From positions 800,001 through 864,000 of the forward strand of contig OY761556.1 of the NCBI GenBank assembly GCA_963664705.1: DNA of 64,000 nucleotides, given 5' to 3'. A model generated the notes under the pieces. It was not told the DNA's origin and did no database searches. It worked only from the letters and a program-made list of their open reading frames with translations. Position numbers and translations under genes: made by a program. Shown piece after piece: positions 42,636 through 64,000 of this stretch; positions within the stretch are counted from its first letter, which is position 1, and each line of letters starts with the position of its first letter. The DNA is from Acidobacteriota bacterium. Its GTDB lineage: Bacteria > Acidobacteriota > UBA6911.

Positions 42636-43295
42636 GTGCCAACGGCAGACGAATGGATTGATCAGTTTGAGTTGGCGTTGTTGGCTATGGATTCGATGGA
42701 AGCCCGGCAACTTATTCACAGCGCTGGTGCAATGCTTTCTCCTGTTCAGATCGTGGACAGCATCATTGTGCCTGCGCTTGAGCGCATCGGGGCCAGGTGG
42801 GAACGCGGCGAGGCTGCGCTTTCACAAGTCTATATGAGCGGCCGAATCTGCGAGCCGCTGGTAAGCAATCTCCTGCCCATCGACAGCCACGATCGAAAGG
42901 ATAAACCGATTGTGGGGGTTACCGTCCTGGAAGATTTTCATGTATTGGGAAAAAATCTGGTTCTGTCCGCCCTGCGTGCGAGCGGATTCAATCCGCTCGA
43001 TCTTGGACGAACCGATGTAGGGCAGCTCATCCAGACTGTGATTGCTGAAAATGTGAAGGTGCTGCTCATATCCACCCTCATGCTTCCATCGGCGCTCCGT
43101 GTGCGCGATGTATGCAACGGACTGAAAGCGGCAGGATACCGGGCAAAGATCGCCGTTGGCGGCGCGCCATTTCGCTTTGATCCGGAGTTGTGGCGTGAAG
43201 TAGGCGCCGATGCCGGAGGGCGCAGTGCCGGCGAAGCTATCACGATCACGCGCGAATTGATACAGGCCGTGGAAAGGATGGAGACTACAACGTGA
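42636..43295 (+). CDS. Corrinoid (cobamide-binding) protein, MtaC/MtbC-like
   Basis: Cap domain IVPALERIGARWERGE; EDFHVLGKNLV (DxHxxG), ISTLM, VGGAP; GTG start. Confidence 0.9.
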   Translation: MPTADEWIDQFELALLAMDSMEARQLIHSAGAMLSPVQIVDSIIVPALERIGARWERGEAALSQVYMSGRICEPLVSNLLPIDSHDRKDKPIVGVTVLEDFHVLGKNLVLSALRASGFNPLDLGRTDVGQLIQTVIAENVKVLLISTLMLPSALRVRDVCNGLKAAGYRAKIAVGGAPFRFDPELWREVGADAGGRSAGEAITITRELIQAVERMETTT

Positions 43296-44356
43296 CTGTG
43301 CCCGCAGCAACAGCGATGGAACGGATCATGATCAGCATGAGTCATCGGGAGCCGGACCGGGTTCCGTTTGTCATCTCGGCCACAATGCTGGGTGCTCGCG
43401 AACTGGGTCTTTCGATAAAAGAGTATTACTCAAGAGCCGAAAACATCGTTGAAGGCCAGTTGCGCATTTTAGCCAAATATCGACATGATGCCCTGATTGC
43501 CAGTTTTTATGGCGCCTTGGAAATAGAAGCCTGGGGAGGAGAAACGATATTTCGCGAAGACGGCCCTCCCAATGCCGGCGCTCCGATCATTTCCCGTCCG
43601 GAGCAGATTGTTGATCTCACGCCCCCGCGAGTTGAGGAATCCCCGCGGCTCACCGAAGCACTTAAGGTTATTCAGCGGCTGAAAGACAAAGTGGGAGATT
43701 CCATCCCGATCATGGGCGCGGTTAATTCCCCGTTTTCTCTTCCCGTCATGCAGATGGGATTTGAAGCTTATCTGAGCCTGATGCATGAACGTCCCGATCT
43801 GTTCAACCGGTTGATGGCAGTGAATGAGGAATTCTGCGTTGCCTGGGCAAATGCACAGATTTTGGCAGGCGCAACGGCCGTCGGCTATGCGGACCCGGTT
43901 TCTTCCCCGACGATTATTCCGCGCGAAATGTATCTTCAAACAGGGTATCAGGTAGCCAGGCGCGTTATCCCCCAGATTAGAGGAGGTGTTGCGACGCATT
44001 TTGCCTCCGGCAACTGTTTGTCCATTCTTGGCGATGTTGCGGAGACGGGCACCATTGCAGTCGGAGTCAGCGCCTTGGAATGCCTGACGGATCTCAAGGC
44101 GGCCTGTCGCGGCCGGTTGGCTGTAATGGGGAATCTCAATGCCATTGCCATGAGACACTGGTCAGCAGAAAAGGCAGTCGATGAGGTGAAAAATGCCATC
44201 GCCGAAGGTGGGCCGGGAGGAGGATATATCCTGTCGGACAACCATGGCGAAATTCCCTGGCAGGTATCCGATGACATTCTGCATGTTATTGCCGATGCTG
44301 TTCATACTTGGGGGTCTTATCCACTAAATTGGATTTCGAAGGAAGCAATGGAATGA
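43292..44356 (+). CDS. UROD-fold methylcobamide methyltransferase-like protein (MtaA/CmuA family)
   Basis: EPDRVP, EIEAWG, SPFSL, GA...ADP, MGNL, GGGYILS; GTGA overlap with the corrinoid gene. Confidence 0.88.
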   Translation: MTVPAATAMERIMISMSHREPDRVPFVISATMLGARELGLSIKEYYSRAENIVEGQLRILAKYRHDALIASFYGALEIEAWGGETIFREDGPPNAGAPIISRPEQIVDLTPPRVEESPRLTEALKVIQRLKDKVGDSIPIMGAVNSPFSLPVMQMGFEAYLSLMHERPDLFNRLMAVNEEFCVAWANAQILAGATAVGYADPVSSPTIIPREMYLQTGYQVARRVIPQIRGGVATHFASGNCLSILGDVAETGTIAVGVSALECLTDLKAACRGRLAVMGNLNAIAMRHWSAEKAVDEVKNAIAEGGPGGGYILSDNHGEIPWQVSDDILHVIADAVHTWGSYPLNWISKEAME

Positions 44357-51798: not shown

Positions 51799-52116
51799 CT
51801 AGGCAATTTCGATCAGGATCTGGTCTTTTGCCACTTTATCGCCTTTTCTTACGCGGATATGTTTGACAACGCCATCCTGCGCGGCTTTGAGGCTATTGAG
51901 CATTTTCATGGCTTCAAGAATCAAGACGGTTTCCCCTTGTCGCACCGGCTTGCCGTTTTCAACGTTGATTTGCGCAATTACCCCCGGAATAGCCGCGCGG
52001 ATAATCCGGGGATCTTTTTTTTGAAAGCGCTTGCGCATTCCGAATTTTCGGGTCAAGCGGGTTTCGAATACGCCGTTTTCCAACCCGATCTGCATGAACT
52101 TATCGTGATCGCTCAC
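51799..52116 (-). CDS. Biotin carboxyl carrier protein
   Basis: LEAMKM biotinylation motif, IPGVI; GTG start 7 nt after AGGAG. Confidence 0.92.
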   Translation of the reverse strand: MSDHDKFMQIGLENGVFETRLTRKFGMRKRFQKKDPRIIRAAIPGVIAQINVENGKPVRQGETVLILEAMKMLNSLKAAQDGVVKHIRVRKGDKVAKDQILIEIA

Positions 52117-52126
52117 AGTCAATCTC

Positions 52127-53671
52127 CTAGAATGGCGGAATTCCGTGCTTGCGCGTCGGACGGCTTTCCTCTTTGTTGCGCGTCATTTTCAAAGCGTGGG
52201 TAATATAGGCCCGTGTTTCCTCCGGCGCGATCACCGCATCTACGTAACCGCTGGAGGCTGCGACGTACGGATTGGCGAATTTGTCGGAGTATTCCTTGAC
52301 CTTGAGCTTGCGCATCTCTTCCGGGTGCTTTGCGGACATTATTTCGCTGCGGAAGATTATATTGGCGGCGCCTTCCGGACCCATGACCGCAATCTCGGCT
52401 ATGGGCCATGCAAAAACGAAGTCCGCGCGAAGATGATGCGAGCACATCGCGATATAGCCGCCGCCATAGGCTTTGCGCAGAATCAGGGTAATTTTCGGCA
52501 CGGTGGCTTCGCTATAGGCATATAAAACCTTGGCGCCGTGGCGGATAACACCGGCGTGTTCCTGATCGGATCCCGGCAGATATCCCGGGATGTCCACCAG
52601 CGTGAGCAGCGGTATATTGAAAGAATCGCAGAAACGGATAAAGCGCGCGATCTTGTCGGACGCGTCCACATCCAGCACGCCCGCGAGCACCAATGCCTGG
52701 TTTCCGATGATTCCAACGCTCTGACCATCGATGCGACCAAATCCGATCACCGCGTTGGGCGCGAACATTTCCTGAACTTCAAAGAATTCGGAATTGTCCA
52801 CGAGCGCGCGCACGATGTCTCTGACATCGAAGGGAACCTTGGAGTCCTTCGGGATCAAGGTTTCGATTTTAAATGTTTCGTGCGGGATCTTGGGCTCGGC
52901 GTCGGGAGCTTTTTCGCGGTTGCTGTTGGGCAGATAGCTGAACAGTTTGCGGATCTGCTCAAAGCACTCCCTTTCACTCCTGGCAAAGAAGTGGGCATTG
53001 CCTGCCAGTTCGGCCTGAACACGGGCTCCGCCGAGATCTTCCATTGAAATCTCTTCGCCAAGCACCGTCTTTACCACTTCCGGGCCGGTAATAAACATTT
53101 TGGAAATCTGGTCGACGACAAAAACGAAATCGGTAAGGGCTGGCGAGTAGACGGCTCCTCCGGCGCATGGGCCCAGGATAACCGAGATCTGTGGAACTAC
53201 TCCGGAAGCCAGGGTGTTGCGATAGAAAATTTCTCCATAGCCGGCGAGTGAATTAACGCCTTCCTGGATCCGCGCTCCCCCCGAATCGTTGATTCCGATG
53301 ACCGGGATTCCCATCTTGACGGCATGATCCATGATCTTTGTGATTTTGCGCGCATGCATCAATCCCAGCGACCCGCCGGCAACGGTGAAGTCCTGTGCGT
53401 AAATACAAATCGGCCGGCCGCCAATGGTCCCGGAGCCGGTAATAACACCGTCGGCCGCCAGTTCCTTATTGTCCATGCCGAAATCGCGGCAGTTGTGTTC
53501 TACGAAAAGGTCGTATTCGTGAAAGGAGCCCGGATCGAGCAGCGCGGCAATTCTTTCTCGCGCCGTCATTTTCCCGACAGCCTTCTGTTTGCTGATGGCC
53601 TGCTCGCCACCGCCTTTGGAGATATTTGATTTCTTCGTGAAGAAATCGACGATCCTTTGCATGACAGACAT
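52127..53671 (-). CDS. Acyl-CoA carboxyltransferase (PccB/MmdA-like)
   Basis: TARERI, DSGGARIQEG, GPCAGGAVYSP, RKAYGG, KHGIPP. Confidence 0.95.
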   Translation of the reverse strand: MSVMQRIVDFFTKKSNISKGGGEQAISKQKAVGKMTARERIAALLDPGSFHEYDLFVEHNCRDFGMDNKELAADGVITGSGTIGGRPICIYAQDFTVAGGSLGLMHARKITKIMDHAVKMGIPVIGINDSGGARIQEGVNSLAGYGEIFYRNTLASGVVPQISVILGPCAGGAVYSPALTDFVFVVDQISKMFITGPEVVKTVLGEEISMEDLGGARVQAELAGNAHFFARSERECFEQIRKLFSYLPNSNREKAPDAEPKIPHETFKIETLIPKDSKVPFDVRDIVRALVDNSEFFEVQEMFAPNAVIGFGRIDGQSVGIIGNQALVLAGVLDVDASDKIARFIRFCDSFNIPLLTLVDIPGYLPGSDQEHAGVIRHGAKVLYAYSEATVPKITLILRKAYGGGYIAMCSHHLRADFVFAWPIAEIAVMGPEGAANIIFRSEIMSAKHPEEMRKLKVKEYSDKFANPYVAASSGYVDAVIAPEETRAYITHALKMTRNKEESRPTRKHGIPPF

Positions 53672-53810
53672 AATTGCCCCTCGGTCTCCTAGCCAAAAAG
53701 TCGCATCAGTACGCAGAGAAGATGCGAGTTTAGCAGAAAAAAGCCGTCTGGGAAGCTGCAATTTAGGTGGATGCCAATCGCGATTCCCGAACCGCCTGGC
53801 TGCTCACCCC

Positions 53811-54809
53811 CTACTGTCCTCCGCCTTCCGCAACATAGACCTGTGGATTGACGCAATTTGGCAGGCGCTCCCGCTTCAACCCGGCGATCAGGTTTTCCGC
53901 GGCCATGCTTGCCATCTTGTTGCGGGTTTGAAAGCTTGCGCTCGCAATGTGAGGCGCAACGATGATGTTGTCCAGCGACAACAACGGGTCGTTTGCGCGG
54001 ATAGGTTCGGGTTCTGTTACATCCAGCGCGGCGTAGGCGATGGTGCCAGCAGATAGCGCGTGGTAGAGGGCCACGGGGTCGACGATTGGCCCGCGCGCGG
54101 TGTTGATCAGGATGCTGCTTGGTTTCATCATCCTCAGGCGGGTTTCATTGATGAGATGGTGCGTTTGCTCGGAAAGTACCGTGTGCAGCGAAACAAAATC
54201 GGATTCTTGAAGCAGGGTATCCAGGTCGGCATATTGTGCACCAAGCTGCTGCTCCGCGTCGGGCTGGCGCTTCCTGTCAAAATACAGAATGCGCATATCG
54301 AAGCCGCGGGCACGGCGTGCCACAGCCTGCCCGATCCGTCCAAACCCGATAAGGCCCAAAGTAGCGCCCGTTATATCGGGTCCGAGAAAATCGACCGGCC
54401 CCCACGTTTTCCATTTGCCGGCCCGTGTGAATTTATCCCCCTCCACAACTCGGCGCGCTGCCGCCATCAGGAGTGTCCACGCAAAATCAGCCGTAGTGTC
54501 GGTGAGAACGCCGGGCGTATTTCCGACTGGAATGCCTTTCTCGGTGGCCGCGGTCACGTCTATGTTGTCAAAGCCCACAGCCATCTGGCTGATGACCCTT
54601 ATTTGCGGGCCGATGGAGTCCATAAGGGCCGCATCGATCCTGTCGGTCAGCAGGCATAAAAGCGCGTCGACGCCCTTTGCCTTTTTCAGTAAAACTTCGT
54701 GCGGCGGCGGGAGCGCATCGGGCCAGATCTCGATATCCGCTTCCTTCCGGATCATTTCAAGTCCCACTGCCGGGATGATGCGAGTAACAAAAACTTTGGA
54801 CTTTGCCAT
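53811..54809 (-). CDS. D-2-hydroxyacid dehydrogenase (glyoxylate/hydroxypyruvate reductase, GyaR-like)
   Basis: AVGFDNID, NTPGVLT, GFGRIG, INTARG, LDVTEPEP, PHIASA. Confidence 0.93.
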   Translation of the reverse strand: MAKSKVFVTRIIPAVGLEMIRKEADIEIWPDALPPPHEVLLKKAKGVDALLCLLTDRIDAALMDSIGPQIRVISQMAVGFDNIDVTAATEKGIPVGNTPGVLTDTTADFAWTLLMAAARRVVEGDKFTRAGKWKTWGPVDFLGPDITGATLGLIGFGRIGQAVARRARGFDMRILYFDRKRQPDAEQQLGAQYADLDTLLQESDFVSLHTVLSEQTHHLINETRLRMMKPSSILINTARGPIVDPVALYHALSAGTIAYAALDVTEPEPIRANDPLLSLDNIIVAPHIASASFQTRNKMASMAAENLIAGLKRERLPNCVNPQVYVAEGGGQ

Positions 54810-54840
54810 GGATATTCCTGGGAATGGTTTTGGATTCTCG

Positions 54841-54871
54841 GCAACTGGGAGTGTCCGGCACTCCCAGTTGC
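54841..54871. repeat. 13-bp perfect inverted repeat
   Basis: GCAACTGGGAGTG-TCCGG-CACTCCCAGTTGC. Confidence 0.6.
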
Positions 54872-54938
54872 GCAGAATTTCATCGGGGGACAATTCCCGG
54901 GTTGGGGATGTCTCTCCGACCAATATCAGACAGCAGCG

Positions 54939-55955
54939 TTATTGAATACCTTTTACCCACTCGAGGTTCTCTTTGATCAGGTTCGGTATGGGCAGGTCGT
55001 AGGGGCATCGCTCCATGCAGTCGCCGCACTCCGTGCATCCCAACGCTTTTTGCAGTGTGTTTGCGAGCATCGGAGATTTCAGGATAGCCGGACCGCCCCG
55101 CTTCACGAGCGATTTCACTCCCATCATGAATTGTATTGGAATTTCGACCGTGCAGGGCAGGCAGTAGTCGCAGCGGCGGCAGAATTTATTTTCGTATTCC
55201 TTGCTGACCTCAGCAATCAGACTCATTTCTTCCTGGGTCAAGACATAATCGCTCTCAAAAACAGACCAGTTCTGATCTATGCGCTGTTTGTCTTCAACCC
55301 CTGCAAGAACCAGGATGTTCTGATACGCAAAAATCCACTTTAGCGCGGCCGAAGCAGATTCAATGACTCCACCGGAAAAGGGCTTCATGGCCAGAATCCC
55401 CACCTGCTTGTCAATTGCCTTGGGTATGACTTTCTCCCGGGCAGCCGGCTCAAGAAAACTGAAGCAGACCATGATGGTTTCGAATAAACCATCATCGAGT
55501 ATCTGTTCCAAGAGATCAAGACTATGGCTGGTAATCCCGATATGGCCTATCAATCCCTCCTCTTTTGCCTTCTGAAGACCGTAAAGTGCACCTCCCGGCG
55601 CGGTGATCCGGAGGTATTCCTCTTTGCTGCTGATCCCGTGGCACTGGTAGATATCAATGTAATCCCGCTGGAGTTCCTTTAGGCTGATCTCCACATCTTT
55701 CCGGATGCTGTCGGCGGTGCGGCCGAAGGATTTTGTGGCCAGGGCCGCTTTTTTGTCCGTTTCCTTCAAAGCTTTGCCTATCCTTGTTTCGCTGGTCGTA
55801 TACATCCTGGAGGTGTCGATAAAGTCCATCCCCTTTTCGAGCGCATACTTAACGACCTCGATGGCTTCCGGCTCGCTGACCCTTTGAATCGGAATGCCGC
55901 CAAATCCAAACCTTGTGACTTCGATTCCTGTTTTTCCCAAAACTATTTTCTTCAT
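54939..55955 (-). CDS. Aldo/keto reductase with C-terminal 4Fe-4S dicluster
   Basis: LGKTG, FGGIPIQR, IDTSRMY, AMKP; CRRCDYCLPC and CTECGDCMERCP. Confidence 0.92.
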   Translation of the reverse strand: MKKIVLGKTGIEVTRFGFGGIPIQRVSEPEAIEVVKYALEKGMDFIDTSRMYTTSETRIGKALKETDKKAALATKSFGRTADSIRKDVEISLKELQRDYIDIYQCHGISSKEEYLRITAPGGALYGLQKAKEEGLIGHIGITSHSLDLLEQILDDGLFETIMVCFSFLEPAAREKVIPKAIDKQVGILAMKPFSGGVIESASAALKWIFAYQNILVLAGVEDKQRIDQNWSVFESDYVLTQEEMSLIAEVSKEYENKFCRRCDYCLPCTVEIPIQFMMGVKSLVKRGGPAILKSPMLANTLQKALGCTECGDCMERCPYDLPIPNLIKENLEWVKGIQ

Positions 55956-56438
55956 GTGTCTGACCTCGAATGCAGGATAGCTTACTCCTGAACCTTGTTC
56001 CAAGAAACCAACAAAAAAGCGGGACTGTCGGTGCGAGTACTTTCGAATCTATTCGTAGGAGGGGACTCCATTTGGTCATTGGTATTAAGAATCGTTTCCG
56101 ACATGGGCATAAAATGTGATAAAAAGATATGGGCAAATTGAGCAAAAGTCCGATGTCGGATGCTCGTGCGATTGTTGAATGCCGGCATCGGTTGATTCGT
56201 ATATGCCGCTGGAATGCCCCATAATGATGTATCTGTTTCGGAAGTTCAGCCAATGTCTGCGCCGCCGGGAGATTCCTCCGCGGCGGGTTTAGTGTGCTTG
56301 TGAGAATCCCGCTGGACCGAATTCAGGAATAGCAATTATTTACGGGGGCCAGTAGACCGATGCCGGAAGCGTTTTCCCCGGAGCCATCGGCGGTGGAAGC
56401 CCAGGGTTTTATAACATAAGAGTTAAGGGAGAAGTACG

Positions 56439-58091
56439 ATGATCGAAACAGAAATGGCCGATGCTTCACAGTCTGGTGGATCAAAGGTTATTAGCGCTGA
56501 CCAGGCAGCTGCTCTGATACAGGACGGCGTGACGCTGGCTGCCCCCATTATTGGTTTGGCCGGCTGGTCCGAGGAAATTGCGCAGGCGATTGCAAAACGT
56601 TATCGGGAAACGGGGCATCCGAAAGGCATCACATTGTTTTTGGGGTCCGCCGCCGGCAACCATAAAGACAAAGGGCCACAGACCATCGGGATCGAGGGAT
56701 TGGTTACCCGTTACATCGGCGCGCACATGCACGGATCCCCGGCCATTGGAAAGCTGATCCAGGAAAACAAGATGCTCATTTACTGTTTCCCCCAGGGCGT
56801 TGTGGTGCAGCTTCTGCGGGAAATTGCCGCGAAACGGCCGGGCATCATTACTAAAGTGGGGTTGGGCACGTTTGTTGATCCTCGGCAGGAGGGCGGCAAG
56901 CTCAACGATCTGACTCGCAATGAGCCTGACCTGAATGAGGTGGTGACTTTTAATGGCGAGGAGTACATCTGGTACAAGCCGGTACCCATCAATGTTGGTT
57001 TGATTCGTGGAACGCGGGCTGATGAGCGTGGAAACATAGCGATGGACAGGGAAGGAGCCAATCTCGAGGCTCTCCAGGTCGCGCAGGCTGCCAAGAATAG
57101 CGGCGGGATTGTCATTGCCCAGGTCGAGTATCTGGCGAAAGCCGGCACGCTTCACGCAAAGTCCATCCAGGTGCCAGGCGTGCTCGTCGACTATATCGTT
57201 GTTGCTAAGAATCCCCAGGAATGGCACATGCAGAGCGAAGGCATTTACTACCAGCCGGCGTTCAGCGGCGATGTGGTTATGCCCTTGGGCGCTCTCCCGA
57301 AACTTCCATTCGACGAACGTCTGTTCATTCTTCGCCGTGCAGCCATGGAGCTTACTCCCAATTCTGTTGTCAATCTGGGGATCGGTATTCCGGACCGGCT
57401 CGCGACGGTTGCGGCTCATGAGGGCGTGACCGATATGCTGACTCTCACCACCGAAGTCGGCGGTGTCGGTGGCGTGCCGGCAGGCTGGCCCAATTTTGGC
57501 ATGAGTTACAACGCAGAGGCTTTCGTTTGCCATCCCAATATGTTCGACTGGTACGATGGCGGTGGGATCGATCAGGCTTTCCTCGGGATGGGAGAAATCG
57601 ATCAGCACGGCAATGTCAATGTGAGCAAGTTCAACGGCAGGCCGATCGGATGCGGCGGATTTATCAACATCACCACTGCATCAAAGAAGGTTGTCTATTG
57701 CGGCACCTTTACGACAGAGGGCCTCAAAGTTACGGCCGAGGATGGCAAGGTCAAGATTTTGCAGGAAGGGAAAAAGCTCAAATTCATCGATCACGTGGAG
57801 CAAATTACCTTCAGCGGCAAATATGCGGCCAAGAACAAGAAGCCCATTCTCTATGTGACTGAGCGCGCGGTGTTCCAGTTGATTGATGGCGAAATCACTC
57901 TTGTGGAGATTGCTCCGGGAATCGATATCGAGAAAGATATTTTCGCGCACATGGAATTCAAGCCCAAGGTTGCGGCCAACCTGAAATCGATGCCGCCGGA
58001 GATTTTCTATCCGGAGTGGGGACGGCTCAAGCAGATTATTGAAGCCAAGCGTCAGGACGCGGCAGCCCAGGCTGCTGGAACAGCCAAGTAG
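56439..58091 (+). CDS. Family I acyl-CoA:carboxylate CoA-transferase (Pct/YdiF-like)
   Basis: PQG, VGLGTFVDPR, VNLGIGIP, catalytic TEVG, GNVNVSKF, GGFINI, YVTERAVF. Confidence 0.93.
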   Translation: MIETEMADASQSGGSKVISADQAAALIQDGVTLAAPIIGLAGWSEEIAQAIAKRYRETGHPKGITLFLGSAAGNHKDKGPQTIGIEGLVTRYIGAHMHGSPAIGKLIQENKMLIYCFPQGVVVQLLREIAAKRPGIITKVGLGTFVDPRQEGGKLNDLTRNEPDLNEVVTFNGEEYIWYKPVPINVGLIRGTRADERGNIAMDREGANLEALQVAQAAKNSGGIVIAQVEYLAKAGTLHAKSIQVPGVLVDYIVVAKNPQEWHMQSEGIYYQPAFSGDVVMPLGALPKLPFDERLFILRRAAMELTPNSVVNLGIGIPDRLATVAAHEGVTDMLTLTTEVGGVGGVPAGWPNFGMSYNAEAFVCHPNMFDWYDGGGIDQAFLGMGEIDQHGNVNVSKFNGRPIGCGGFINITTASKKVVYCGTFTTEGLKVTAEDGKVKILQEGKKLKFIDHVEQITFSGKYAAKNKKPILYVTERAVFQLIDGEITLVEIAPGIDIEKDIFAHMEFKPKVAANLKSMPPEIFYPEWGRLKQIIEAKRQDAAAQAAGTAK

Positions 58092-58106: not shown

Positions 58107-58155
58107 GGCCGCCAATCCCGCATGGTTACGGAGTTGGCGGCCTGATTTTTTTTTT
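58107..58155 (+). terminator. Rho-independent terminator
   Basis: GGCCGCCAAT...GTTGGCGGCC followed by a T-tract. Confidence 0.75.
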
Positions 58156-58375
58156 CGGACGTGTGATTCCGTTTGATATTGTAGGTGAATTTCAAAACTC
58201 CGGGATGACATTGACCATTTTTTGCTGTAATATTGGCAATGCGTTTCAACTACTAACAAAAAGAGAAACCGAAAAGACGTCTTTGTTGACGCTGCAGTTA
58301 CGAACACCGGATCGAACTCGCAGAGAAGCTTTCAGTCGTCAAAAACAACAATGACTTCATTGTAAAGGTGAAGCG

Positions 58376-59818
58376 ATGAGCTCTGTAAATATTGGCAGAT
58401 TAAAGGAAATAGTCGGAGAAGTGAATGTTCGGGATAACATAGCCGACCTGTATGTCTATGGTTCCGATTCTTCCGTCCACGAAGCAATGCCGAACGCCAT
58501 TGTCCGGCCGCAGAACACTGAACAGGTTCAGGAAATCATGCGGTACGCAAATGGTGAGAAAGTACCAATCATTCCGCGTGGGTCCGGTTCGGGTATGTGC
58601 GGCCAGGTAGTGCCGGTTCAAGGGGGCATTATCCTTGACATGAAGGGCATGAACCGAATCCTCGAAATTAACCCGCAAGATGGCTATTGCCGCGTAGAAC
58701 CGGGAGTCGTTGATGATGATCTGAATAGAGCGCTGAAACCATTCGGCGTATTCTATCCGCCGACCCCGGCGTCCAGCTGCGTGGCAACCATTGCCGGCGA
58801 AATCGCCAATAACGCTTCCGGCGGACGGTCAGTGAAATACGGCGCCGCCCGTGATGCGATCCTCTCCATGAAAGTTGTCATGCCGAATGGCGACCACCTT
58901 TCATTTGGATCCAGCACGCGTGTGGCTGCGTCCGGATATCCGCTGGAACGGCTCATGGTCGGATCGGAAGGAACGCTGGCCGTTATCACGGAAGCCTGCA
59001 TGCGCTTCGTGCCAATACCCAAGCTTCGTTGCCTGGGCATTGCCAAATTCAACCAACTCGGAGAAGCAGGAGATGCGATTTCCGATATCATGGGCAGCGG
59101 TTGCCAGCCTTCCATGTTGGAACTCATCGACAAGGTTGCGATCATCGCCGCGAACAAGGCTGCGAAGCTGGGATTGCCCGAAGTTGAGGCGATTCTTCTT
59201 TTCGAAGCGGACGGAATGACGAAAGACCTGATCGATGCCGAGATGGCCAAGATTCAGAAGATCTGCGAAAAGCATAACTGCTTCGGTATGGAGAGCAGCT
59301 ACGAGGAGAAGGAAAGAACGCGGATTTGGGCCGGACGCGCCAAATTGTTCCCGGCTCTTTCAAAATACGACGATCGCCTTGCCTCCACATCATTGGCTGA
59401 TGATATGGCAGTGCCATTCTCCAAAATGGCGGCAACAGCCGAGAAGATCCATGAAGTGGCCGAGAAACATGGGCTCGTAATGACTGCCTACGGGCACTGT
59501 GGTGCCGGTTGCATGCACACCAAGATATTGATGGATACTGACCGGGAGTTCCAATGGGAAGGCGCCCGGGATGCCGTTGCCGAGATTTATGATTTTGTTC
59601 GCTCGGTTGGCGGTACCACCTCTGCGGAACATGGCATCGGATTGTCCAAAGCCGCAGCGTTCAAGAGGGAAAAGCAACCCAGCCTTGAACTGATGCGTGC
59701 GATCAAGCGCGCGTTTGATCCCAACAATATTTTGAATCCTGGAAAACTCATGGACGGCCCGGACGATTGGGTCGAGGCGACAAATTTGCGGTATCAAGTT
59801 TCGAAGGCGGGAAATTAA
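58376..59818 (+). CDS. FAD-linked 2-hydroxyacid dehydrogenase (GlcD/LctD, D-lactate dehydrogenase-like)
   Basis: PRGSGSG, VEPGV, GSEGTL, GHCGAGCMH, SAEHGIG, DPNNILNPGK. Confidence 0.93.
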   Translation: MSSVNIGRLKEIVGEVNVRDNIADLYVYGSDSSVHEAMPNAIVRPQNTEQVQEIMRYANGEKVPIIPRGSGSGMCGQVVPVQGGIILDMKGMNRILEINPQDGYCRVEPGVVDDDLNRALKPFGVFYPPTPASSCVATIAGEIANNASGGRSVKYGAARDAILSMKVVMPNGDHLSFGSSTRVAASGYPLERLMVGSEGTLAVITEACMRFVPIPKLRCLGIAKFNQLGEAGDAISDIMGSGCQPSMLELIDKVAIIAANKAAKLGLPEVEAILLFEADGMTKDLIDAEMAKIQKICEKHNCFGMESSYEEKERTRIWAGRAKLFPALSKYDDRLASTSLADDMAVPFSKMAATAEKIHEVAEKHGLVMTAYGHCGAGCMHTKILMDTDREFQWEGARDAVAEIYDFVRSVGGTTSAEHGIGLSKAAAFKREKQPSLELMRAIKRAFDPNNILNPGKLMDGPDDWVEATNLRYQVSKAGN

Positions 59819-60759
59819 TGAGAGACATCACCAAATTAGAAAAATGGAAGCTTGCGCTCAATAAGTGCATCCGTTGCGGTTACTGTTATGAACACTGCCC
59901 GATCTACAAATCCACACGGTGGGAAATTGATAGCCCTCGTGGCAAGCTGATTCTGCTCTACGGAATGCTCAGCGGAGAACTGGAGCCGTCCGATTACATC
60001 GCCACCAAGATTTTTGATTGCTTCCACTGCAACCGCTGCGTGAAGGCCTGTTCTTCCGGCGTGCCGCTACAGGATGTCTATAATGATTCCAGGTCGTTCT
60101 TCCTGGAAGCCGGGTACGACGTCGTCGGAACCACCTCCATGACCAAGCACGAAGATTGTGCGCGCTGTCTGAACTGCGTGCGCATGTGCAAACATGAAGC
60201 CCGGAAGTATGTGGACGGAAAGATTGTCACGGACCGTCTGAAATGCCAGAGCTGCGGCAGCTGTATCGATATCTGCCCGGCGCAGGGTGTCAGCATTCAG
60301 CACGGTTTTGGTACCAATCCGAACGAGCTTCTTGATGAGGTGCAAGCCTACTTCGGGAATCCGGAAAACAAAGATGCCAAGGCTATCGTGTTTTCCTGCG
60401 GATATTCCAGCTATCCGGGGCTTCAGACCGCGCAGTACGACAAGTTCGTGATCAGCAACGAATACAAGATCCTGGTGACCGCGTGCAGCGGACGCCTGAA
60501 ATCGAATACTGTTCTGGAAACAATGGAGCGTGGAGCCTGGGGCGTCCTGATCTGCTGCTGCCCGGAAGATGAATGCGAGCACGGCGGAAGTCCGCGAGTG
60601 AAGGCGCGCATGAAGGCCCTGACAAGCTCTCTCGAGAGACTCGACATCAACCCGAAGCGGCTGCAGGTGGTTGAAGTGCCGCCGGGGAATCCGGGGCAGT
60701 TTACCAACGCTACGAAGGCTTTCATGGAAGATATCCGAAGCATCGGGCCTTTAGTATAA
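59818..60759 (+). CDS. Fe-S fusion protein: GlcF/HdrC-like dicluster, ferredoxin dicluster and MvhD/FlxD domain
   Basis: Four CxxCxxCxxxC motifs, SPRG, then FSCGYS, CSGR and CPEDECEH; TAATG overlap. Confidence 0.88.
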   Translation: MRDITKLEKWKLALNKCIRCGYCYEHCPIYKSTRWEIDSPRGKLILLYGMLSGELEPSDYIATKIFDCFHCNRCVKACSSGVPLQDVYNDSRSFFLEAGYDVVGTTSMTKHEDCARCLNCVRMCKHEARKYVDGKIVTDRLKCQSCGSCIDICPAQGVSIQHGFGTNPNELLDEVQAYFGNPENKDAKAIVFSCGYSSYPGLQTAQYDKFVISNEYKILVTACSGRLKSNTVLETMERGAWGVLICCCPEDECEHGGSPRVKARMKALTSSLERLDINPKRLQVVEVPPGNPGQFTNATKAFMEDIRSIGPLV

Positions 60760-60769
60760 GGAGTTGCCA

Positions 60770-62044
60770 ATGAAGCTAAGTGTTGCATACGGCAAAGATG
60801 GAAAGCTCGAGGCCGAAATCGACGAAAAGCGTGTTCTTGGGCTCATTGAACCCAATGAAGTCGAGATCGGCGATGAAACGGAAGTCATCCGGCAAGCGTT
60901 GGCGAGTCCCCACGGGTATGAAAGCCTGCGGGAATTCCTGAAGGATGCCCGGGATGTGCTGTTCATTGTGAATGACCCGACGCGGCCGACGCCAACGTCG
61001 CGCGTGCTTCAGTTGATTCAGGATGACATTGCCGGTCACAAGGTCAGTTTTATTGTGGCCACCGGAATCCACCGGAAGCCGACGGATGAAGAATACGTCC
61101 AGATATTCGGCGAGAAGCTTTATGCCAAATACAAGGATTGTATTTTCGTCCATGATGCCAGGAAGAGCGAGGATATGGTCTTCCTCGGAACGTCGAAAAA
61201 CGGCACCGAGATGAAGGTCAACAAGCTGGGCGTCGAAGCGCACAAAATCGTCATCATTACTTCGGTGGAACCCCACTATTTTGCGGGATACACCGGCGGG
61301 CGCAAGTCGTTCCTGCCCGGCATTGCTTCGTATGAAACGATCACGCAGAATCACAAGCTCGCGCTGAAACGTGAAGCCTGTGCGCTCAAGCTCGAGGGCA
61401 ATCCTGTTCATGAGGACATGATTGATGCCCTCAGCACGGTGAAGAAGGAAATTTTTGTAATCAATACGGTTCTGGACAAGAACCATCGTATTTATGCTGC
61501 CGCCGCCGGGGACATCTATAAGTCTTTTGAGGCAGCGGTTGCGAAGGCGAATGATGTATTTGTAGCCAAGATCCCGGAAAAAGCGGATATCGTCGTTTCT
61601 GTCGCTAAATTCCCTTCCGATATCGATCTCTATCAGGCTCAGAAGGGAATCGATAACGCGAAACATGCGTTGAAGGAAGGCGGCATCCTGATTTTGGTTT
61701 CAAAGTGCCGTACAGGCATTGGCGAGGATTCGTTCGTCAAGCTTTTAAGCTCTGCAAGTTCGCCGCAGGATGCTCTGGACCGCATCGAGAAGAAATTCGT
61801 TGTGGGCTACCATAAAGCGGCCAAGATGGCGGAAGTCGGGATTTGGGCACAAACCTGGGGCGTTACGGATCTCGATCCCAAACTGCTTGAAAGCATCTTC
61901 ATCAAGCCCTTTTCTTCGCTGCAGACGGCCCTGGATGCCGCTCTGGCGGAGAAAGGAAAAGATGCCAAAGTCCTGGTGTTGCTCGACGGCAGTCTGACCA
62001 TTCCGTTCGTGCAACAGCAGACAGCCTCAGGCAAGAACGCCTAG
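60770..62044 (+). CDS. larA: Nickel-pincer lactate racemase family protein
   Basis: NDPTRPTP, ATGIHR, EPHYFAGYTGGRKS, QNH, YQAQK; AAGGAG RBS. Confidence 0.92.
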   Translation: MKLSVAYGKDGKLEAEIDEKRVLGLIEPNEVEIGDETEVIRQALASPHGYESLREFLKDARDVLFIVNDPTRPTPTSRVLQLIQDDIAGHKVSFIVATGIHRKPTDEEYVQIFGEKLYAKYKDCIFVHDARKSEDMVFLGTSKNGTEMKVNKLGVEAHKIVIITSVEPHYFAGYTGGRKSFLPGIASYETITQNHKLALKREACALKLEGNPVHEDMIDALSTVKKEIFVINTVLDKNHRIYAAAAGDIYKSFEAAVAKANDVFVAKIPEKADIVVSVAKFPSDIDLYQAQKGIDNAKHALKEGGILILVSKCRTGIGEDSFVKLLSSASSPQDALDRIEKKFVVGYHKAAKMAEVGIWAQTWGVTDLDPKLLESIFIKPFSSLQTALDAALAEKGKDAKVLVLLDGSLTIPFVQQQTASGKNA

Positions 62045-62062
62045 CAAATGGAGGAATAGATA

Positions 62063-62728
62063 ATGATAGTTGGTGATCAGAAACCTATTGAAGACATCCT
62101 GGCATACGTCGATGGTTGCGAACGTATACTGCTGGCAGGTTGCCACGGCTGCGTTACGGTGTGCTGCGCGGGGGGACAGAAGGAAGTGGATGTTCTGGCC
62201 AGCATGATTGAACTGGGCCGGATGAAGCGCCGCCAGCCATGCCAGATTACGAAGATTACGCTGGAACGCCAGTGCGATGTGGAGTTCCTCGAAGAATTGA
62301 TCGCAAAGTCCAAGGAAAACGATGTAATCCTGTCGATGGCTTGTGGCGCAGGCGTTCAGCTGGTAGCCGAAAATGCCGGGACGAAGAAGGTAGTGCCGGC
62401 GCTGAACACAAATTTTATCGGCGCCATTCATGAAAAGGGAGTATGGGGCGAACGGTGTCAGACCTGCGGCGACTGCAAGCTTGCTCTGACCGGCGGTATT
62501 TGTCCCGTCACGCGCTGCTCCAAGAGCCTGATGAACGGCCCCTGCGGCGGATCGCGCGATGGAAAATGCGAAGTGAATTCCGATATTTCCTGCGGCTGGA
62601 ATCTGATCGTGGATCGGCTGGAGGCGACAGGTTGTTTGGACCAATACGAGAATATTCTGGAACCGGCGGACTGGTCGCGCTCCCGTGATGGAGGACCGCG
62701 AAAACTGGTTCGGGAAGACTTAAGGTAG
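62063..62728 (+). CDS. metV: Methylene-THF reductase Fe-S/Zn subunit
   Basis: GCHGCVTVC...GG, ERQC, ACGAGVQ, CQTCGDC, CPVTRCSKSLMNGPCGG, CEV, CGW. Confidence 0.93.
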   Translation: MIVGDQKPIEDILAYVDGCERILLAGCHGCVTVCCAGGQKEVDVLASMIELGRMKRRQPCQITKITLERQCDVEFLEELIAKSKENDVILSMACGAGVQLVAENAGTKKVVPALNTNFIGAIHEKGVWGERCQTCGDCKLALTGGICPVTRCSKSLMNGPCGGSRDGKCEVNSDISCGWNLIVDRLEATGCLDQYENILEPADWSRSRDGGPRKLVREDLR

Positions 62729-62731
62729 AGA

Positions 62732-63670
62732 ATGGCTAAAAGAGGAAAAAACATGAATCCAAGCAAGTCAAACCTGAAGACCGTACTCGAATCGGGCCAA
62801 TTCGCGGTAACCGCCGAAGCGGGGCCGCCGCGCGGAGCCAAGCCTGAAGTCGTGCGCCAGAAGGCCAAGATTCTGAAAGGCTGTGTCGATGCCTGCAACG
62901 TCACCGACAATCAGACCAGCGTTGTTCGTATGTGCAGCCTGGCAGCCTGCAAGATTTTGAGTGATGAGGGCATTGATGCCGTCATGCAGATGGTTTGCCG
63001 TGATCGAAACCGAATCGCGGCTCAGAGTGATATCCTGGGAGCCGCATCGCTCGGGATTTCCAATCTGCTATGCCTTTCCGGAGACCATCAGGTTTTCGGA
63101 GATAACCCGAAAGCCAAGAATGTATTCGATATCGATTCAATCCATCTCCTACAGATCGCCAAGGGAATGCGGGATGACTCCAAATTCGCCGGCGGCAAGG
63201 ATGTGGATGGACCTCCGGATATGTTTATTGGTGCGGCGGCAAATCCGTTCGCGGATCCTTTCAAAATCCAGGTTCCGCGGCTGGCAAAGAAAATTGCGGC
63301 CGGGGCACAGTTTATTCAGACCCAATGCGTTTTCAATCTCGACAAATTTATTGAGTTCATGAGCGGCGCAAGAGATCGTGGACTTGATGAAAAAGCCTAT
63401 ATCCTAGCGGGAATTACGCCGGTCAAGAGCTTGCCCATGATTGAATACATGGCAACGAAGGTGGCCGGGATGGATGTTCCGCAGGCGCTGATTGAACGCA
63501 TCAAAGGCGTCGAGAAAAAGAATCAGAAGAAGGAAGGAATCAAGATCGCGGTGGAAACGATCCAACAGCTCAAGGAAGTCAAAGGCATTCGTGGCGTACA
63601 CATTATGGCCATCGAATGGGAGGACGCTGTTCCTGAGATCGTCGAACAGGCGAATCTGAAAACCAAGTAA
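62732..63670 (+). CDS. metF: Methylene-THF reductase flavoprotein
   Basis: TAEAGPP, NVTDN, CRDRNR, LSGDH, KKIAAGAQFIQTQ, GVHIM; start 62732 or 62753. Confidence 0.94.
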   Translation: MAKRGKNMNPSKSNLKTVLESGQFAVTAEAGPPRGAKPEVVRQKAKILKGCVDACNVTDNQTSVVRMCSLAACKILSDEGIDAVMQMVCRDRNRIAAQSDILGAASLGISNLLCLSGDHQVFGDNPKAKNVFDIDSIHLLQIAKGMRDDSKFAGGKDVDGPPDMFIGAAANPFADPFKIQVPRLAKKIAAGAQFIQTQCVFNLDKFIEFMSGARDRGLDEKAYILAGITPVKSLPMIEYMATKVAGMDVPQALIERIKGVEKKNQKKEGIKIAVETIQQLKEVKGIRGVHIMAIEWEDAVPEIVEQANLKTK

Positions 63671-63687
63671 ATCCGCACAAATACTCC

Positions 63688-63748
63688 GCGGTGAAAATCG
63701 GGTCCGACCCCGATTTTCACCGCCGCCACAAATCGGGTCCGACCCCGA
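63688..63748. repeat. REP-like palindrome plus a partial second copy
   Basis: GCGGTGAAAATCGGG-TCCGAC-CCCGATTTTCACCGC, then AAATCGGGTCCGACCCCGA at 63730-63748. Confidence 0.7.
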
Positions 63749-63907: not shown

Positions 63908-64000
63908 ATGAAAAAAGTCAGCATCATCGGCAGCGGAAATGTGGGAGCGAATACCGCTTTTTTTGTCGCGGAAAATCGGGCCGCATCGGTCGTGCTCGTT
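63908..64000 (+). CDS. Malate/lactate dehydrogenase family, 5' end (truncated by the window edge)
   Basis: MKKVSIIGSGNVGANTAF Rossmann GxGxxG motif; GGAGG RBS. Confidence 0.8.
   Translation, partial: MKKVSIIGSGNVGANTAFFVAENRAASVVLV

Follow-up and report, generated by a model that had tools for sequence, protein, structure and literature searches.

Positions 58,376 to 63,670 of a 64,000-nucleotide stretch of an Acidobacteriota genome (contig OY761556.1, positions 800,001 to 864,000; hereinafter, the window), taken from a single-contig assembly of 6.89 Mb that is 98% complete, contain five co-oriented genes encoding a GlcD-type dehydrogenase, an iron-sulfur (Fe-S)/MvhD adaptor, a LarA-superfamily racemase, and the MetV and MetF subunits of methylene-tetrahydrofolate (methylene-THF) reductase (MTHFR) (Table 1). 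The reading that we favor, and to which we give slightly more than an even chance, is that this operon, conserved in anaerobic bacteria, encodes a soluble D-malate:methylene-THF oxidoreductase that works near equilibrium and would constitute a new electron module for reductases of the MetVF type. In this scheme, the racemase would convert L-malate to D-malate, the FAD-dependent dehydrogenase would oxidize D-malate to oxaloacetate, and the electrons would pass through the five Fe-S centers of the adaptor to MetVF, where methylene-THF would be reduced to methyl-THF; the latter would then be handed to corrinoid methyltransferases or re-oxidized by Hdr-linked MetVF copies. Such a pathway would avoid the uphill, NAD-dependent oxidation of malate without drawing on quinone. 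For MetVF-type reductases, the physiological electron partner has long been an unanswered question in the bioenergetics of acetogens and sulfate reducers (PMC8760232). The operon is a small soluble candidate for this role that has a proposed organic donor, lacks a bifurcating flavin, and occurs in a cultured organism, Desulfocicer vacuolatum DSM 3385. If correct, the assignment implies an undescribed electron route between malate and one-carbon metabolism, a physiological job for malate racemases, and oxidation of malate without NAD+ or quinone.

Table 1. Features of the operon and its immediate flanks (window coordinates)
Feature	Position	Strand	Description
Hairpin and T run	58107..58155	+	GC-rich stem followed by ten T; folded at -33 kcal/mol; missed by a simple terminator scan
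Sigma-70-like site	58205-58234		9/12 match; weak: promoter-like matches are rarer than in shuffled sequence
GlcD-type dehydrogenase gene	58376..59818	+	480 aa; Pfam FAD_binding_4 and FAD-oxidase_C
Fe-S/MvhD adaptor gene	59818..60759	+	313 aa; Pfam Fer4 domains and FlpD (MvhD)
LarA-superfamily racemase gene (larAH)	60770..62044	+	424 aa; Pfam Lar_N and LarA_C
metV	62063..62728	+	221 aa; PF12225; Fe-S subunit of methylene-THF reductase
metF	62732..63670	+	312 aa; PF02219 (MTHFR); flavin subunit of methylene-THF reductase
Perfect inverted repeat, 15 bp	63688..63723		3' of metF; lacks a T run; a second, partial copy lies immediately downstream
First of two malate dehydrogenase genes (start)	63908..64000	+	same strand as the operon, downstream

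The layout described in the first-pass annotation, with spacings of -1, 10, 18, and 3 nt in gene order and no etfAB, hdrAB or rnfC2 within the five-gene unit, is borne out by the ORF coordinates and Pfam annotation. That annotation proposed lactate as the electron donor and LarA as a lactate racemase; the superfamily assignment stands, whereas the substrate is probably not lactate. All of the residues that bind the nickel-pincer nucleotide (NPN) or participate in catalysis are retained (R72, H101, H169, K179, H195, and K292; R75, H108, H174, K184, H200, and K298 in LarA numbering), and this set is complete in 117/117 homologs (those left of 160 loci after filtering by length and identity; as no dereplication was applied to the set, related entries do not count as independent). 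According to PMC11770544, substrate specificity is diagnosed by LarA positions 175, 176, 358, and 359, which are F, F, W, and E/Q(/T) in lactate racemases and Y, F, H/Q, and T in hydroxyglutarate racemases, whereas in malate racemases, the largest group of the superfamily, the last two positions are occupied by H/Q and K; swapping residues at such positions interchanged the preference for lactate and malate (10.1101/2024.11.28.625916). The operon racemase has Y170, F171, H348, and K349, which is the malate signature, different from the lactate one at three positions and from the 2-hydroxyglutarate one at the last, where K replaces T; these four residues are found in 117, 117, 115, and 115 of the 117 homologs, respectively. 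The best match in the PDB is the malate racemase Mar2 (6D6Z, 249 bits vs 176 bits for LarA), and the best NCBIfam model is the LarAH6 malate racemase, although the scores fall below the cut-offs for both this family (399 bits, cut-off 500) and LarAH5 (298 bits, cut-off 462). Like Mar1, Mar2, and the LarAH group 4 (PMC7583248, PMC11770544), the protein combines the NPN-binding and catalytic residues with the H-K motif and a glutamine just before the catalytic lysine (Q291, corresponding to Q293 of Mar2); unlike them, it has F, not K, in the loop and scores under both family cut-offs. Judging from these signatures, the gene product is likely a LarA-superfamily nickel-pincer malate racemase, probably a member of the uncharacterized group 4 of PMC7583248. 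In Table S1 of the latter work, COG0277 and COG1908 (MvhD) are recorded beside 3/18 group 4 racemase genes, with no conclusion drawn, and MetF (COG0685) has 0 matches; this table is the sole trace of the combination that the literature search turned up.

As for NPN synthesis in this genome, larC was identified with Pfam. Candidates that we take to be larB and larE were picked by a short motif alone. The genome also carries a second racemase cluster (C1:888804-895383, locus L004), in which the LarA homolog has Q, Y, Q, and R at the specificity positions, along with GlcF, a GlcD with Asn at the position of K383 of the operon dehydrogenase, and two genes similar to class 2 malate/sulfolactate dehydrogenases.

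The dehydrogenase belongs to the FAD/metal-dependent D-2-hydroxyacid type (GlcD/LctD/D2HGDH subfamily), scoring 381 bits against the NCBIfam GlcD model, below the cut-off of 568; the best PDB match is LctD, only slightly above other members of the subfamily. Residue equivalences were derived from alignment to LctD (7QH2), mouse LDHD (8JDC), and 3PM9, together with equivalences given in the papers. Subsite A is complete (R321, H374, H381, E418, and H419), in agreement with membership in the vanillyl-alcohol oxidase (VAO) family, and subsite B consists of F325, A341, Y372, and K383. In enzymes for D-lactate and glycolate, the second subsite is hydrophobic, whereas that of dicarboxylate enzymes is polar and basic (PMC7801405, PMC10589216). 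Compared with the hydrophobic subsite of D-lactate enzymes (Trp351, Ser365, and Ile407 in LDHD), F325 and A341 fit but K383, which takes the place of Ile407, does not, and Y372 is polar; nor is the D2HGDH set of Thr390, Lys401, Tyr432, and Asn443 reproduced, the corresponding residues being F, A, Y, and K (Y372 aligns with Tyr432 and K383 with Asn443). Both Y372 and K383 are present in 123/124 homologs, the remaining one being unreadable. The conserved Lys383 in subsite B argues for a second carboxylate on the substrate, even though the pocket is mixed, and D-malate is the likely substrate of the dehydrogenase; from the residue signatures of the two enzymes, we infer that malate, rather than lactate, feeds the operon. 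Two additional invariant cysteines, C375 and C379, flank the metal-binding histidines; at window positions 59495-59518, the motif reads GHCGxGCxH as opposed to GHAGDGNLH in relatives.

Oxidation of D-malate to oxaloacetate has precedents in the VAO family, namely, D2HGDH (PMC7801405) and the D-malate:cytochrome c oxidoreductase of Ectopseudomonas oleovorans (PMC12294151), but these enzymes donate electrons to ETF, quinone or cytochrome, and the operon enzyme has the binding lysine at another position. The closest parallel in organization is provided by LctBCD of Acetobacterium woodii (7QH2) and the GlcD-GlcF types, which share with the operon a VAO-family FAD/metal dehydrogenase, an adjoining racemase gene and a GlcF-type dicluster domain. 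Unlike these systems, the operon lacks Etf, contains a ferredoxin-MvhD part in place of the CCG domains of GlcF, and has a polar, basic subsite B. The etfAB genes that mark the confurcating LctBCD operon are absent from the unit; the only etfAB pair in the genome is at C1:2.41 Mb.

The adaptor consists of three domains, a GlcF-type 2x[4Fe-4S] domain (residues ~14-82), a 2x[4Fe-4S] domain similar to the C-terminus of HdrA (~110-156), and MvhD (185-311), and contains no CCG domain. Sixteen ferredoxin-type cysteines and four MvhD cysteines (C194, C223, C248, and C253) are invariant in 54 aligned homologs; we take the latter four to be the [2Fe-2S] ligands of the MvhD domain. The AlphaFold2 model shows one compact protein (pLDDT 88, pTM 0.83), and the best Foldseek matches are MvhD chains, confirming this fold, with no full-length match among solved structures. 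The architecture suggests a GlcF in which the CCG half has been exchanged for the HdrA-MvhD part that precedes metV in type IV MTHFR clusters.

Of the complex modeling proposed in the first-pass annotation for the four redox proteins, the pair of MetV and adaptor residues 100-313 was covered. With a 37-row alignment for each input, this pair passed with a score of 0.64, whereas the best-scoring of 3 controls had 0.00; the passing mark was reached by 116/157 solved complexes and 2/215 mismatched pairs. At least 95% of the contacts are shared between runs, and the partner pLDDT is at least 78. The Cys-rich N-terminal loop of MetV (residues 28-40) is placed on the adaptor cluster at 113-123/151-156, a contact that, in the model, would make a sensible electron path. 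No MetV relatives were found in the PDB, so the model is unlikely to recall a solved pair. Binding of the adaptor to MetV is predicted from the modeled complex together with synteny, and binding of GlcD to the adaptor is suggested by homology to GlcDF.

To assess conservation of the gene order, 80 loci out of 299 confirmed relatives were examined in the genome scan and 80 out of 313 in the metagenome scan; 50 genomes selected from the 80 genome loci were profiled for pathway genes. The closest relatives by the fusion (adaptor) protein are Acidobacteriota bins, one of them titled UBA6911. The arrangement is not accidental: judged by the fusion gene, it recurs in 23/29 genomes of the genus, and it also occurs in other phyla. 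Its distribution is patchy and rare, with no instance among relatives outside the genus (0/31), the adaptor found in 1/251 genomes of the order that includes the Pseudomonadota bin G011 and the dehydrogenase in 3/401 genomes of the phylum of G033. Among the genome loci, 79/80 have glcD before the adaptor gene and 77/80 have the racemase gene after it, whereas metV or metF is in view in only 47/80; the order of the trio is thus nearly invariant, and its link to metVF is far less constant. Four arrangements are represented among these 47 loci: metVF directly downstream of the trio (24), downstream without the racemase (2), upstream (7; locus L071 was moved to this class by eye), and convergent with HdrA/MvhD-type genes of its own (14). 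The last class corresponds to a Desulfobacterales operon (L042:12443-16786 and 13 more loci) that is convergent on the trio and consists of metV, metF, an hdrA-like gene (383 aa), and an hdrA/ferredoxin/MvhD gene (511 aa), QmoAB-like and without HdrBC.

In the phylogenetic tree of MetV (73 rows), the copies from the downstream order, all but that of L076, form a single clade of 22 rows (support 100/99) that spans Acidobacteriota, Myxococcota, Planctomycetota, Thermodesulfobacteriota, and Pseudomonadota and is separate from the MetV copies that are linked to Hdr genes in those genomes; a different clade comprises the copies from Desulfobacterales. The existence of two MetV clades suggests that the trio probably became tied to MetVF at least twice. 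In the dehydrogenase tree, the link to metVF is lost or absent on several branches. A MetV-domain match was detected in 50/50 genomes searched, one of these being only weak. Relevant here are the Pseudomonadota bins G011 and G012, each with one MvhD and one MetV match, both inside the module: no LarA and no HdrA-type match was found in these bins, which are incomplete and related to each other, and they keep the order glcD-FeS-metV-metF without the racemase, with a separate standard MetF elsewhere. A short SerA-like gene is present near two racemase-less operons (L022:14404-15396 and L023:13639-14631) and could supply the D-hydroxyacid in such loci; rnf genes are located upstream of the operon in L023. 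Altogether, the proposed wiring from the dehydrogenase through the Fe-S/MvhD protein to MetVF, with no HdrA, Etf or RnfC2, gains support from synteny, the MetV clade, the two Pseudomonadota bins and the complex model, with the substrate changed from lactate to malate.

The neighbors of the 80 genome loci include malic enzyme (4 loci), OadB (5), OadA/PycB (4), pyruvate:ferredoxin oxidoreductase (PFOR; 6), and alanine dehydrogenase (3), and, from one-carbon metabolism, a RACo pair (25), Fhs (1), and FTCD (2). D. vacuolatum carries two copies of the module, one of them (L048) in the order oadB, malic enzyme, PFOR, metV, metF, glcD, FeS, larAH. In Desulfobacterales, the trio faces the RACo pair, and acsB lies 39-52 kb away in two genomes.

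Several observations weigh against the D-malate:methylene-THF assignment. The metVF genes are absent in 10/80 loci with both sides in view and in 15 partly viewed loci, whereas 8 loci end too early; in L027, metV is not followed by metF; and in the 14 convergent loci, the adjoining metVF has HdrA/MvhD-type partners of its own on the other strand. In the fragmented bin G037, which encodes the adaptor, MetV is matched only weakly and MetF not at all. In nine metagenome loci, the adaptor is present without glcD, near hdrA-mvhD. The complex test is also passed by close cousins of a true partner (10/12 colicin pairs), so that this particular MetV is not singled out. With regard to the substrate, the dehydrogenase lacks the D2HGDH Lys401 (Ala341) and has Phe325 at the position of Thr390, as in lactate and glycolate enzymes, and the malate-enzyme neighbors come from few lineages. 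Finally, the proposed direction of the reaction depends on assumed values for the potentials and pool sizes. The adaptor of the nine metagenome loci (L145-L147, L150-L153, L155, and L162) is a 332-aa form that is often encoded a few genes from mvhD-hdrA-hdrA.

The potential of the malate/oxaloacetate couple is -166 mV. For methylene-THF/methyl-THF, it is -200 mV (PMC8760232). The step from D-malate to methylene-THF was computed at +6.6 kJ/mol, and folate reduction is favored at a malate/oxaloacetate ratio above ~14. With couples so closely spaced, the reaction should be reversible. In this genome, malate oxidation appears to be the likelier direction because NAD-malate dehydrogenase, citrate synthase, and phosphoenolpyruvate carboxykinase (PEPCK) encoded next door would keep oxaloacetate low; in Desulfobacterales, with the RACo pair opposite and, in two genomes, acsB at 39-52 kb, methyl-THF oxidation is equally plausible.

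Although the parts are known, their combination is outside the four MTHFR types of PMC8760232, in line with the suggestion in the first-pass annotation that this may be an uncharacterized type. Type IV, HdrCBA-MvhD-MetVF of Moorella thermoacetica, shares with the operon MetV, MetF, MvhD, and the HdrA C-terminal ferredoxin domain before MetV, but the operon cluster is devoid of HdrC, HdrB, the HdrA flavin domains, and the NADH site, and instead includes a GlcD-type dehydrogenase and a racemase. Types II and III (MetVF, and MetVF-RnfC2 of A. woodii) resemble it in being soluble and in joining a MetVF core to an exchangeable module for electron donation; here, however, electrons would come from a 2-hydroxyacid (about -170 mV) instead of NADH or ferredoxin, and there is no rnfC2 beside metVF. 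The unit was not found in the available parts of PMC8760232 or PMC2702500, and no paper was found on a GlcD + MvhD + MetV unit or a D-malate-linked methylene-THF reductase in a literature search whose coverage excluded most subscription papers.

Among the alternatives, it is unlikely that the same wiring serves another dicarboxylic or polar 2-hydroxyacid, such as 2-hydroxyglutarate or tartrate. Y, F, and H at three racemase positions fit hydroxyglutarate racemases as well, malate racemases also epimerize tartrate, and the SerA-like gene neighbors two racemase-less loci, which in Pseudomonas is linked with D-2-hydroxyglutarate as well as D-malate (PMC12294151); against this stand K, not T, at racemase position 359 in 115/117 homologs, Ala in place of the D2HGDH Lys401 that is needed for 2-hydroxyglutarate, and the malate/oxaloacetate enzymes that neighbor the loci. 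D-lactate as the donor, with a lactate racemase, is scarcely probable at all, despite the LctD match and the lactate/glycolate-like Phe325, a lactate/pyruvate couple closer to -200 mV (+1.9 kJ/mol), the PFOR and alanine dehydrogenase neighbors, and the Pct-type CoA-transferase gene upstream: the F175, W358, T359 signature is missing from the racemase, swaps of such residues exchange the lactate and malate preferences, subsite B, hydrophobic in D-lactate enzymes, has an invariant lysine, and LctD barely outscores other members of the subfamily.

The other alternatives concern the partners and the direction. That the glcD-adaptor-larAH trio is a stand-alone malate dehydrogenase module donating electrons to HdrA/Qmo-like proteins or ferredoxin, with metVF merely co-regulated, seems about as unlikely as a different hydroxyacid, if not slightly more so. 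The trio is indeed far steadier than its link to metVF (79 and 77 vs 47 of 80), the adaptor occurs alone near hdrA-mvhD in the nine metagenome loci, and the solved partner of MvhD is HdrA, of which this genome encodes several copies; yet G011 and G012, with no HdrA-type match, kept glcD-FeS-metV-metF while the racemase was lost, and both the dedicated MetV clade and the complex model point to MetV. We regard as quite improbable a module that runs mainly in reverse, with methyl-THF from corrinoid demethylases or acetyl-CoA oxidation reducing oxaloacetate to malate, and malic enzyme together with a Na+- or ATP-driven carboxylase lifting the electrons to NAD(P)H; this would be the same enzyme working in the opposite direction, and may be limited to Desulfobacterales. 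This direction is downhill by 6.6 kJ/mol at standard state, and the gene content is compatible with it, both here (two AcsE-type methyltransferases, three RACo, Fhs, and FolD, with no acetyl-CoA synthase found) and in the RACo-adjoining loci, including the Desulfobacterales with acsB at a distance and, in some, malic enzyme and OadB adjacent; however, an active NAD-malate dehydrogenase would hold oxaloacetate too low, OadB was not found in this genome or in 7/8 other Acidobacteriota bins searched, and G011 and G012 have no RACo. Very improbable, too, is a requirement of the four bound redox proteins for a further partner, ferredoxin or HdrA, in a confurcating or bifurcating reaction: in type IV MTHFR, NADH and methylene-THF were not coupled unless a second, unknown acceptor took part (PMC8760232), the five predicted clusters of the adaptor leave room for another port, and rnf genes lie upstream in L023, but the operon encodes no bifurcating flavoprotein and the reaction is near equilibrium unaided.

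Beyond the D-malate:methylene-THF assignment itself, a broader possibility, which we consider doubtful, is that methylene/methyl-THF acts as an electron carrier, soluble and at around -200 mV, with the three to five MetV copies of these bacteria as sockets for different redox modules; the operon, a malate dehydrogenase independent of quinone, would be the malate socket. Where a Na+-pumping oxaloacetate decarboxylase or malic enzyme accompanies it, such a socket would make the methylene-THF reductase step energy-conserving or drive methyl-THF oxidation uphill. A general Na+-pumping cycle was rejected given that OadB is found in 18/28 genomes but not in this one.

The genome encodes Fhs, FolD, LarC, one EtfAB pair, malic enzyme, and, apart from the operon, an hdrCBA cluster. 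The Wood-Ljungdahl, acetogenic framing of the first-pass annotation is not upheld: AcsB, AcsC, and AcsD were not found in this 98% complete genome, with no CdhC match and only partial CdhD matches, and acetogenesis was rejected because no acetyl-CoA synthase was found. MttB-type methyltransferases were not found either. AcsB was detected in 2/15 Acidobacteriota vs 32/35 other carriers among the 50 genomes, which disagrees with a preprint on the family UBA6911 that reports a complete Wood-Ljungdahl pathway in most genomes of that genus. Two further MetVF clusters are present in this genome, one of them a canonical type IV hdrCBA-mvhD-metVF (C1:42.9-51.2 kb); the operon MetF is 64% identical to the Hdr-linked one. 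The locus L002 (C1:79949-93065) is another MetVF plug-in, with an mvhD-like gene, a divergent metF, three glutamate-synthase-domain genes, a 1503-aa HdrA/GltD fusion, mvhD, and metV, the product of which groups with copies from two relatives. Corrinoid methyltransferase clusters (MtaA/UroD-like, corrinoid protein, AcsE-type, and RACo) are located at C1 1.15, 3.07, 4.33, and 0.64 Mb. In genomes G014, G015, and G043 (L185, L186, and L193), MvhD genes that stand alone next to metV continue through a single in-frame TGA, likely a selenocysteine codon.

The two flanking elements named in the first-pass annotation are both present. The hairpin with the T run is likely an intrinsic terminator of the upstream CoA-transferase gene, whereas the palindrome beyond metF, with no T run and partly repeated at once downstream, need not end the transcript; only 3 exact matches to its core were found in the genome, which does not make it a genome-wide repeat. 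Either ATG 62732 or ATG 62753 can be the metF start codon, and no common motif was seen by eye in the upstream non-coding regions of 11 relatives. Downstream on the operon strand, the two malate dehydrogenase genes are followed, beyond the window, by genes that we take to encode citrate synthase and PEPCK, a flank that recurs in one close relative (L085) and in 0/80 genome loci. Upstream (window 51799-58091), there are genes for a biotin carrier, a methylmalonyl-CoA carboxyltransferase-like protein, a glyoxylate reductase-like protein, an Fe-S aldo-keto reductase, and the Pct-type CoA-transferase, the last of which adjoins the glcD-adaptor-larAH trio in 5/160 loci. Farther upstream, at 42636-44356, genes presumably encoding a corrinoid-like protein and an MtaA/UroD-like protein are embedded among sensor kinase and receiver genes.

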